From assembly GCA_965116925.1 (NCBI GenBank), contig OZ220744.1, positions 1,024,001 through 1,088,000 on the forward strand: DNA of 64,000 bases, written 5' to 3'. Positions 11,070 to 14,154 of this stretch are shown piece after piece. Position 1 is the stretch's first letter; every line of letters starts with the position of its first letter. The stretch is from Candidatus Poribacteria bacterium (GTDB lineage Bacteria; Poribacteria; WGA-4E; PCPOR2b). The position numbers and the translations under genes were made by a program. The notes beneath the pieces were generated by a model. The model had not been told where the DNA came from. It worked only from the letters and a program-made list of their open reading frames with translations, and did not search any database.

Positions 11070-12026
11070 TTACGGTTCCTCAATTGGATTCGATCCGGCC
11101 AACTCACGAAAGCGATTGAGCGTCTTCAAAATCCCTTGCTCCATTGTGTATTCGGGTGTAAATCCAACCTCCTGAGCGATTGGTTCCGCATCATAATCCC
11201 ATGAAATTCCAAACACGCCCGGCTCAAGCGTTATCTGTGCACTCGGCACTAATTTCTTTAAGTAAGCGACACCTTCCCTAACCGTCCGAATTCCACCCTT
11301 GACGTTGAAAACACGCGTCTTTGTAGCCGGACAGGTGCAGGACATCACAATAGATCTGGACACATCTTCGACGTATTGCCAATCTATCGCATCGTCGCCA
11401 AATGGAGAAACGTAGGGTTTTCCATGTGCAACAGCTTCAATCATTTGTGTTGAGAATGAGCTCATCCCCCGGGTCCGTCCGACACCGTACACCGCGGTAA
11501 ATCGTAATCCTATCGTGTCCACATCGTAGTTGTCAAAATAGTGGGCCGCGTATCTTTCGTTCATAGATTTGCACGCCCCGTAGATGAATTTTGGATAATG
11601 CGGGGCATCGTTTGCAATCTGCTCGTGATTATAATCTTCCGGTGATCCGAAGACTGCGACACTACTCGCCCAAACAACCCGCTTGAGTCCGAAAATTCGC
11701 GCTGCTTCAAACATGTTGATTGTGCCCTCACATACAATCTTCAACGCCTGGGGTGGGTTGGCATTGCACGCTGGCACCTGCCACGATGCTAGATGGATAA
11801 TCCTATCGATTTCGTGTTCTTGGACAGTTCGCAACACATGTGGGAGATCGGTGATATCCCCCTGAACGAAAGTAAACTGCTCAAGCTGTTCCTCTGTCAG
11901 CACCATTTTGGGAATCGTAAAATCTGGAATAAAATCGTACACAATAATCTTTTCGCCGGCGTTCAGAAGGTCACGAATGACATAGGATCCAATGCACCCC
12001 ATTCCACCTGTTATCAAATATGCCAT
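11070..12026 (-). CDS. NAD-dependent epimerase/dehydratase (extended SDR)
   Basis: ITGGMGCIGS, IIHLA, WASS.AVFG, YGACK (YxxxK). Confidence 0.9.
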   Translation of the reverse strand: MAYLITGGMGCIGSYVIRDLLNAGEKIIVYDFIPDFTIPKMVLTEEQLEQFTFVQGDITDLPHVLRTVQEHEIDRIIHLASWQVPACNANPPQALKIVCEGTINMFEAARIFGLKRVVWASSVAVFGSPEDYNHEQIANDAPHYPKFIYGACKSMNERYAAHYFDNYDVDTIGLRFTAVYGVGRTRGMSSFSTQMIEAVAHGKPYVSPFGDDAIDWQYVEDVSRSIVMSCTCPATKTRVFNVKGGIRTVREGVAYLKKLVPSAQITLEPGVFGISWDYDAEPIAQEVGFTPEYTMEQGILKTLNRFRELAGSNPIEEP

Positions 12027-12168
12027 AGACTTCAACTCCTCTTAGGTCATTTCCTTTCTGTAATTGTTGAGAAAATCAGTTAGGCACAGAGATATTCTGA
12101 TGCCTAGCGCGTAAACACCGCTAGGTTGCTTTATATCCCTGTTTTGCTCGCTTATTGATGGGACTGGG

Positions 12169-12340
12169 GTCAGTTACCCCGCCCTAAAGGACGGGGCTTG
12201 TTTATCCGTCCAATGGGTCTTACCGAGTTCCGCGCTTCTGTCCCCGGACGGGGCGGTTCGGGGTCGTTGACTACCGACACACCTCCACGCAAGGCTACAG
12301 CAGCCTTTTTAATGTTTATCGCAGCGTTATAATCTCTATC
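12169..12340 (-). ncRNA. Putative TnpB omegaRNA (reRNA) scaffold overlapping the tnpB 3' end; 5' boundary approximate
   Basis: Position at the element right end; GC-rich hairpins; low-complexity protein tail after NAAINI. Inferred from known TnpB loci. Confidence 0.6.
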
Positions 12341-13396
12341 CAATACCAACCCACAGTGTGGACAGGCATGGACACGATCTGATAACGATTTCGGTACAAC
12401 TGAATCACAACCTGAGCATTTCTGACTGGTATGCTTGGGATCAACTTGCGTCAACGTCAAGCCAGCGTTTGCAGCTTTGCTTTGAAGTCTTAATCGAAAG
12501 TTACCCCAGCCAGCATCAGATATGCTCTTAGATAGATGCTTATTCTTTACCATGTTCTTGATTTTCAGGTCTTCAACAGCGACTTCTTCGCATTGGGAGA
12601 ACAACCAATGAGCGGTCTTCCCCTGAAAATCACGACGTTGATTGCCGATATGTTCATGTATCTTGGCAACATGCTCCCGTTGTTTCTCATAGCGGACACT
12701 GCCTTTTTCACGACGGGACAATATCCGTTGCGCTTTACCAAGTCTCTTTTCTGACCGGCGGAAGTGTCGGGGGTTATCGACTTTATTACCATCTGAGGTG
12801 GTTAAAAACGACGCAAGCCCTACATCAATACCTATTGTCGTTTCAACGGGAATCTCAACAGGGTCTGCAATCTCAACGACTATGCACACATACCATCCAC
12901 TCGCTTTGCGCCGTACCGTCAACGTCTTAATTTTCCCATCGGGCAACGGCCGGTGGTAATGGATTTTAACATGACCGATTTTCGGCACAACGACTCGCGC
13001 TGTCCGCTTGCGAATATCGCGTATCAACCAGTTCGATAAGTGCTTAAACGTCATTGAACGATACCGACCGGCACCTTTGAAGCGTGGAAAGCCGGGTTTG
13101 TCTCCCTTCTTCCCACGGCGAAAAAACGCTTGGTAGGCTTTGTCTAATCGGTCAATCGTATCCTGCAAAACGTCAATATGAAGCGATGCGACTGGGGCAG
13201 ATTCTTGGCGAAACGGCGTTAAGGCTTTTTCTTGGGTTGATTTCTTAACCGACTGACCGGTCTGTTCGTAGGTCTCCTTACGCCATGCAAGAGCTTGATT
13301 ATACAAGTTGCGAAGGATTTCAAGCCATGCGACCAATTTATTGAATTGCTTGACTGTTGGATAGGCTCTGTATTCATAAGTCTTTTTCATAATCAA
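12170..13396 (-). CDS. tnpB: RNA-guided endonuclease TnpB
   Basis: N-terminal HTH (YEYRAYPT..Q), GFPRFK, RuvC-I GIDVG, RuvC-II VEDL, Zn finger CSGC..CPHC, RuvC-III DRDYNAAINI. Confidence 0.96.
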   Translation of the reverse strand: MIMKKTYEYRAYPTVKQFNKLVAWLEILRNLYNQALAWRKETYEQTGQSVKKSTQEKALTPFRQESAPVASLHIDVLQDTIDRLDKAYQAFFRRGKKGDKPGFPRFKGAGRYRSMTFKHLSNWLIRDIRKRTARVVVPKIGHVKIHYHRPLPDGKIKTLTVRRKASGWYVCIVVEIADPVEIPVETTIGIDVGLASFLTTSDGNKVDNPRHFRRSEKRLGKAQRILSRREKGSVRYEKQREHVAKIHEHIGNQRRDFQGKTAHWLFSQCEEVAVEDLKIKNMVKNKHLSKSISDAGWGNFRLRLQSKAANAGLTLTQVDPKHTSQKCSGCDSVVPKSLSDRVHACPHCGLVLDRDYNAAINIKKAAVALRGGVSVVNDPEPPRPGTEARNSVRPIGRINKPRPLGRGN

Positions 13397-13462
13397 TGCT
13401 TTGAATCTATCACAAAAGGAGACGTAGTTTCCTCTCCGCTCTAAAGGACGGGGCTTCCACTG

Positions 13463-13783
13463 CTAAGATTTTGGTGAATTGACATCGACAAGAATATCGT
13501 TGCCCTCAATTTTCACAGGATACGTTGGGAGTTTCTCCTGCTCTGGCCAGAGGCATTTTCCTGTCTGCACATCAAACTCCCACATGTGGAGTGGACAAGT
13601 GACGACGTTATCATCAAAGAATCCGTAGGTCAAAACGCCACCAAGATGCGGGCAGATGTTATTCATCGCGTAATAGTTGCCATCGATGTTGTATATACCG
13701 ATGAAAACGCCTTCGACTTTAACACCGAGGCAATCACCGGGCTGGACCTCCGTTGTTTCGGCAGCTTTTACAAACTGAGACAT
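13463..13783 (-). CDS. Rieske [2Fe-2S] ferredoxin
   Basis: CPHLG...CPLHMWEFD (CxH...CxxH). The last codons come from the IS left end. Confidence 0.92.
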   Translation of the reverse strand: MSQFVKAAETTEVQPGDCLGVKVEGVFIGIYNIDGNYYAMNNICPHLGGVLTYGFFDDNVVTCPLHMWEFDVQTGKCLWPEQEKLPTYPVKIEGNDILVDVNSPKS

Positions 13784-14154
13784 TCACATTCCTTTCTCAT
13801 CTGTTTTTTTAGAGTTTACGCTTCATGTTCAACACCTTCATTGTATCACGTCTCTCAATATTCCTCAACCTAATTCCTTATGCTGAATTTCGGAGGAAGC
13901 AACGAGAAAATCACATGACCACATTGGTCAATTTTATCGTGTATGGAGGGGACAGGTGGGCAAGGCGATGAGAGACAAGTCTCAAATCTTTTGGAAAATA
14001 ACCTGCTGTTTGAGGATATTCGTAAACTCCTCAAACAGCAGCCCTAGGAAAATTGTTGGTCAGCGAACGCAGAAATCAATGAAACGATTTGCTAGGAAGT
14101 TGAATGCCGAAATATCATGTCTTACGTTTCACGTTTTATGCATCACGTCCCTAT

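Follow-up and report, generated by a model that had tools for sequence, protein, structure and literature searches.

A tnpB-only IS200/IS605 element of Candidatus Poribacteria with an ISDra2-type TnpB and a predicted TCAC TAM

The 64,000-nt window analysed here comes from a 99% complete, single-contig genome of Candidatus Poribacteria, a sponge-dwelling bacterium, and carries on its minus strand a 1,305-bp element (12169..13473). By the features tested, this is one of the IS200/IS605 elements that have tnpB only, and its TnpB is of the ISDra2 type. Its best explanation, which we hold to be probable, is a non-autonomous (IS1341-type) element that was mobilised in trans and encodes an ISDra2-type TnpB with a predicted TCAC TAM. 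As a system the element is ordinary, tnpB-only being described as the common state of such elements (PMC10055086). The prediction of TAMs from element ends is presented as an established method (PMC10055086, PMC12822741). The element's distinctive part is a natural switch from TCAT to TCAC shared by the target and by TnpB residues. The value of the element is practical: natural copies define its ends, target and guide with unusual certainty. A literature search on Poribacteria together with TnpB found no paper.

By analogy with work on IS608, ISDra2 and ISGst, a Y1 TnpA made elsewhere would have moved the element as single-stranded DNA, using the GAAG guide of the left end to choose TCAC. The TnpB would then bind an omegaRNA, processed out of its own 3' end and carrying ~16 nt of right flank, and would cut element-free sites, in which TCAC runs directly into the flank. 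Repair templated by the occupied allele could then restore or spread the element.

Boundaries, insertion site and copies

The ends put forward in the preliminary description were confirmed by element copies within the genome, by empty alleles and by assembled reads, in which contigs from two of four sequencing runs jump exactly 1,305 nt at the element. Both the orthologous loci and these contigs show that the empty site is precise, with no target-site duplication at the element. The layout is that of the IS1341 group, which is defined by the presence of tnpB only: 83 nt separate the left end from the ATG, and no tnpA lies between the ends. An IS607-type element was rejected, with the IS607_TnpB profile reaching 160 bits against a cut-off of 350, no second gene inside and hairpin-and-guide ends of the IS605 type.

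The element sits 3' of a host TCAC tetramer (13474..13477, minus strand), which is the left cleavage site and the predicted TAM, within the last codons of a host gene for a Rieske 2Fe-2S ferredoxin (13463..13783, minus strand; recognised by ORF, domain search and empty alleles). It was absent from all 24 orthologous Rieske loci, 18 of them from the same genus. TCAC stands at the junction in 14 of these 18 same-genus empty alleles, and in six of the 18 the opening 16 nt of the right flank follow it immediately. The left end of the element provides the last codons and the TAG stop of the Rieske gene, so that the protein has 106 aa rather than the 107-108 aa of same-genus empty alleles, and the insertion left the gene nearly whole. 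Downstream of the element and on the same strand, ORF and domain searches identified a host gene for an NAD-dependent epimerase/dehydratase (11070..12035, minus strand).

Two further copies of the element in the same genome are 92% identical to it, and seven more tnpB copies encode proteins of 64-68% identity. In one of the two close copies (4090912-4092359), tnpB is interrupted by a 144-nt insertion rich in palindromes; two relatives (loci L090 and L107) have an element at that same site but lack the insertion. All named relatives that carry the family are Candidatus Poribacteria, and the RNA runs containing the element stretch are mostly labelled sponge metagenome.

The family was surveyed in 89 regions, comprising 79 loci of relatives and ten copies from the same genome. 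Aligning other copies, which the preliminary description had suggested as a check on ends and target, gave a TCAC 5' flank at 19 of 20 independent sites of the clade to which this copy belongs. Right ends were called in 86 of the 89 regions, and all 81 distinct ones finish in TGAC (the first T being imposed by the search pattern), preceded by the right guide CAAG in 73 and CAAC in eight.

TnpB, right end and predicted omegaRNA

The tnpB gene (12170..13396, minus strand), whose stop codon overlaps the terminal TGAC, encodes 408 aa from a TTG codon or 406 aa from the ATG at 13390; most of the closest homologs are also 406 aa long. The RuvC triad, in the motifs GID (D191), VED (E275) and DRD (D355), and a CCCC zinc finger (C327/C330/C345/C348) together span 12332..12826 (minus strand) and are invariant in 42 aligned homologs. 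The intact 408-aa TnpB that had been reported with these motifs was thus recovered in ORF 13396..12170 with every residue in place. The protein has the WED/REC/RuvC/zinc-finger architecture with its D-E-D triad, scored above cut-off with Pfam HTH_OrfB_IS605, OrfB_IS605 and Cas12f1-like_TNB and with NCBIfam guided_TnpB, and matches more than 4,500 proteins at E 1e-60 or better. Assignment as a type V CRISPR effector was rejected, the profiles for Cas12f (Cas12f2) and C2c8 reaching 150 bits (cut-off 350) and 50 bits (cut-off 450).

Of the natural proteins with solved structures, the 'typical' TnpB of ISDra2 from Deinococcus radiodurans (PDB 8H1J, 8EXA, 8BF8) matched best (E 5e-59), and it was among the top fold hits. 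It has the same length and domain order, its D191, E278 and D361 align with the triad here, and its Q80, which contacts the -2 A, corresponds to Q78. In an AlphaFold model, whose RuvC half is of low confidence, the confident N-terminal lobe superposes on the ISDra2 REC/WED region with a TM score of 0.85 by target length and an rmsd of 2.6. As in ISDra2, the 3' end of tnpB and the predicted scaffold share sequence; unlike in ISDra2, the reading frame extends to the last bases of the element. Identity is ~30% in fold alignments, tnpA is lacking here, the ISDra2 TAM is TTGAT whereas TCAC is predicted for this element, and ISDra2 Y52/S56 and K76/F77 are replaced by K52/E56 and I74/D75.

The right end (12169..12200, minus strand) consists of the guide CAAG, an 8-bp hairpin folding at -7.6 kcal/mol and the terminal TGAC. 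Each motif named in the preliminary description was found in place: TCAC at 13477-13474, GAAG at 13457-13454, CAAG at 12200-12197, TGAC at 12172-12169, and the right flank beyond. The last 123 nt of the element, within the 3' end of tnpB, are conserved over 26 aligned ends and fit a six-helix structure, and are predicted to form the omegaRNA scaffold (12169..12291, minus strand, with an approximate 5' end). In this structure 95.5% of cells are paired, both sides changed in six of 24 pairs, and covariation was 0.239 against 0.120 in shuffled and at most 0.068 in slid alignments, the structure itself having been derived from these aligned sequences. With RNAalifold the 5' part instead paired over a long range with the 3' part, at the expense of the right-end hairpin, which may be an alternative fold. 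Single-sequence folding of the omegaRNA region did no better than shuffles (z -0.54), an Rfam scan of 11900-13900 returned one weak match far below cut-off, and an inspection of the scaffold alignment by eye for pseudoknot partners gave no consistent register. A depth peak at 12176-12322 in RNA runs was rejected as a sign of expression; it is present also in a run of unknown kind and is explained by the many copies, and so was not used as expression evidence.

The right flank (12153..12168, minus strand; 16 nt) had been proposed as the RNA guide, and the occurrence of these same 16 nt directly after TCAC in six of the 18 same-genus empty alleles supports this prediction. At position 17 of the 18-nt guide that had been proposed, the six matching alleles have G where this copy has A. 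The element-free allele would be the natural target of such a guide. Elsewhere in the genome no match to TCAC plus the 8-nt seed was found, and the closest TCAC-adjacent match to the guide has at least four mismatches in 16 nt.

Target tetramer and TnpB residues 52 and 56

The left-end DNA guide GAAG (13454..13457, minus strand) lies 16 nt inside the element, in a purine-rich internal loop (5x5) of which it is part of the 5' strand. Both GAAG with TCAC and CAAG with TGAC fit guide-to-cleavage-site pairing. The IS608 rule includes a pairing of G4 with C4, and guide position 4 is Watson-Crick with the target in 54 of the 72 left guide loops counted (six more were omitted as not guide-like); guide base 4 and target read A/T in 38, G/C in 16, C/T in 14, G/T in two and T/C in two corrupted loops. 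The 14 C/T loops, like the eight CAAC right guides, count against the favoured explanation. The pairing model of the preliminary description agrees with this rule, of which G1-C2 and G2-C1 are stated in PMC3201880. According to the same source, IS608 of Helicobacter pylori pairs guide and cleavage site in a like manner, with its guide at +16 to +19 rather than at +17 to +20 as here, and the GA guide with AG 3' of the hairpin resembles the IS608 right end. IS608 is, however, autonomous and targets TTAC, and the left end here has an additional covarying lower stem that encloses the guide.

Left ends were called in 83 of the 89 regions, and removal of five as repeats of the same site left 78. The pattern behind the counts of residues and targets required TCA upstream of the element; with a second pattern free of this requirement, all 83 left ends still showed TCAC or TCAT. 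At 20 sites the TnpB carries K52 and E56 (codons at 13229..13243, minus strand, in ungapped alignment with ISDra2 Y52 and S56), and TCAC precedes the element at 19 of them and TCAT at one. Where the TnpB has W/Y52 and A/G56, TCAT precedes the element at all 57 sites. The remaining locus (L122) is frameshifted across positions 52/56 and has TCAT. The sole TCAT exception in the K52/E56 clade is a copy in the genome studied here (5977468), a site at which relatives read TCAT or TCAC.

In the cryo-EM structure of ISDra2 TnpB described in PMC10097598, Y52 and S56 contact the -1 thymine. The equivalence of positions 52/56 supports TCAC as the TAM, and from the family survey we predict a TCAC TAM whose -1 base would be read by K52/E56. 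The preliminary description had given the TAM as (T)TCAC; the tetramer stands, given the covariation of residues 52/56 with the target, whereas position -5 is not fixed in the clade (T at nine, C at five, A at five and G at one of 20 sites), so the motif is TCAC and not TTCAC.

The 20 K52/E56 proteins form one branch (SH-aLRT 100 in a quick tree of 66 full-length proteins), and the covariation therefore counts as a single switch and not as 20 observations. The branch on which positions 52 and 56 changed is long, and many other residues changed along it as well. We tentatively suggest that the clade represents a natural re-targeting, in which one base of the left DNA guide changed from A to G, the target moved from TCAT to TCAC, and the TnpB followed from W/Y52 to K and from A/G56 to E; this falls somewhat short of being probable.

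A rather doubtful alternative keeps the same element but has its TnpB read TCAY, with C or T accepted at -1, and assigns the TCAC bias to the DNA guide of TnpA only. The K52/E56 copy at 5977468 that follows TCAT would fit such relaxed reading, as would the long branch that residues 52/56 share with so many other changes, and relaxed TAMs are described for some TnpBs (PMC13639567). Against it, positions 52/56 are the structurally shown -1 contacts and change with the target across 77 intact sites, and a published screen of 59 orthologs reports 'relatively little degeneracy' of TAMs.

For a TnpB that reads TCAC, parallels come from ISDra2 relatives. In ortholog 29, from Deinococcus sp. RM, and in TnpB*, residue 56 is acidic and the -1 base is C, as here. 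The TAM TTGAC was measured for ortholog 29, an active protein with D56 (PMC10278001, File S2), and predicted for TnpB*; ortholog 29 keeps Y52, in contrast to K52/E56 here. TnpB*, also with D56, is reported to have given no edits in Streptomyces with its own RNA, which its authors explain by backbone repulsion (PMC12415229). As a general rule, the pairing of an acidic residue 56 with C at -1 was rejected, having failed in 80 distant metagenome loci. Left ends were callable in 26 of these 80; the three with C at -1 carry T56 or Q56, five with E56 (in a poorly aligned stretch) have TTAT, and the closest callable locus (L251, 62%) combines Y52/A56 with TCAT.

A TCAC TAM is also given for AmaTnpB of Alicyclobacillus macrosporangiidus (listed as TTCAC in File S2 of PMC10278001), whose omegaRNA right end, compared by eye with the version in that paper, is a very similar CAAG-hairpin-TGAC. 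AmaTnpB has 373 aa and is placed in the 'Derived' clade, unlike the ISDra2-type TnpB here, and because the clades differ, the shared TCAC TAM is probably convergent.

If K52/E56 are the determinants, they would amount to a two-residue code for C at -1, movable between TnpBs that are 63-79% identical. A true re-targeting would supply TAM engineering with two naturally matched proteins, and would mean that a TCAC TAM arose here independently of AmaTnpB. The sister clades with TCAC and TCAT offer a cheap, direct test of how a TnpB keeps its TAM matched to the target that the DNA guide chooses. PMC12822741 already describes, over 6,479 TAM-TnpB pairs, a coupling of Y52/S56 to the TAM, so the family is a clear worked example and adds no new principle.

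Left hairpin, mobility and derivatives

The left end forms a two-part hairpin with a lower stem, internal loop and upper stem (13424..13463, minus strand), indicated by folding and by compensatory changes in both stems. Across 19 sequences 93.6% of positions are paired and five of 14 pairs changed on both sides, with a covariation of 0.386 against at most 0.08 when slid, for a structure drawn from these same 19 sequences. In the copy studied here, three G>A changes (13440, 13435 and 13425) introduce C-A mismatches, and folding predicts a structure other than the native hairpin (z +0.76 versus -3.47 for the sister copy L078). The hairpin reaches -1.8 kcal/mol where the clade median is -8.85, which ranks it last among the 20 clade copies and 76th of 78 overall. 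The earlier view that both subterminal hairpins are preserved consequently holds for the right one, while the left one has decayed. Two of the three changes are shared by one relative (L112), making inheritance or gene conversion a possible source. In seven of 78 left ends (L095, L116, L121, L143, L144, L147 and L149) the guide loop has been converted into an exact inverted repeat, the outcome to be expected if template switching had corrected an imperfect palindrome; the guide of L095 was erased in this way.

The proposed dependence on a TnpA in trans is supported. No IS605-type TnpA was found in the 99% complete genome, which suggests that the copy is probably stranded, and with its decayed left hairpin and no cognate TnpA found, it is probably no longer mobile. 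Of the five Y1 matches in the genome, one is interrupted by a stop, and the other four resemble RAYTs and are flanked by REP-like or other repeats. Three of the matches align with IS605 TnpA seeds at 22-31%, and all five were rejected as the cognate TnpA because none looks like an IS605 TnpA or bears these element ends. Neither a TnpA nor an autonomous version of this tnpB family was found in 109 family loci. Among 80 metagenome loci, 35 have a TnpB linked to a TnpA, and none of these TnpBs exceeds 44% identity. Strong Y1 matches (>115 bits) were found in seven of 19 same-genus genomes, and at two such loci (L036 and L042) the left ends start like that of this element and the hairpins are close to these ends; on this likeness, their TnpAs are candidate trans-acting enzymes. 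A comparable situation is described for ISGst1-5 of Geobacillus stearothermophilus in PMC10055086, with many tnpA-less copies moved in trans and, as here, PATE-like derivatives; that account also includes clade-specific TAMs covarying with DNA guides and a TnpB that cuts the donor joint. The ISGst host genome encodes TnpA, whereas none was found here, and the ISGst TAMs are described as AT-rich.

It is unlikely, though worth weighing, that the element is a silent relic, its gene intact yet neither expressed nor active here and persisting since it does little harm to the Rieske gene. The left hairpin weaker than any other in the clade and the missing IS605-type TnpA would suit a relic, as would the fact that copies within the genome are only 92% identical. 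All 20 K52/E56 copies, moreover, have a short upstream region (here 13390-13473) in place of the longer one, whose leader motif is found in 42 of the 58 other copies. Against this, the clade reached at least 20 independent sites with its short left region, and 18 of its 20 copies keep complete catalytic and zinc-finger motifs. The element also has the same orientation as the Rieske gene and lies behind a promoter-like site upstream of that gene (13868-13840), one of four such sites found where 4.2 are expected by chance. We favour a TnpB that may still be an active nuclease, although in one published screen only 27 of 59 TnpB orthologs were active. A search for promoter-like sites within the left end found none, and K52/E56 copies show no orientation bias toward host read-through (9 versus 11). 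That the TnpB is domesticated or non-cutting and regulates host genes is highly improbable, since nothing beyond its position between two same-strand host genes was found in favour, and the RuvC triad is intact, the element is missing at 24 of 24 orthologous sites and no TCAC-adjacent genome match to the guide has fewer than four mismatches in 16 nt.

The decayed left hairpin (13424-13453), with its T run, itself lies between the two same-strand host genes, and one may speculate that its weakness might ease read-through into the epimerase gene.

Seventeen further, distant TnpBs in the genome (24-36% identity) belong to several other families; their right ends finish in TCAA and none adjoins a TnpA match. 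Gene-less, PATE-like derivatives of 392-428 bp with both ends occur at 4161432-4161823, 4433301-4433692 and 2103547-2103974. Two of them match at 389 of 392 positions, which suggests recent movement even though an IS605 TnpA was not found. One-hairpin remnants of 48 bp, made of the left half of the left end and the right half of the right end, were seen at 4180774-4180821 and in three relatives (L074, L075 and L086). The flanks of the L086 remnant are nearly the same as those of a full element in L099, so that the remnants look like deletions between two similar hairpins.
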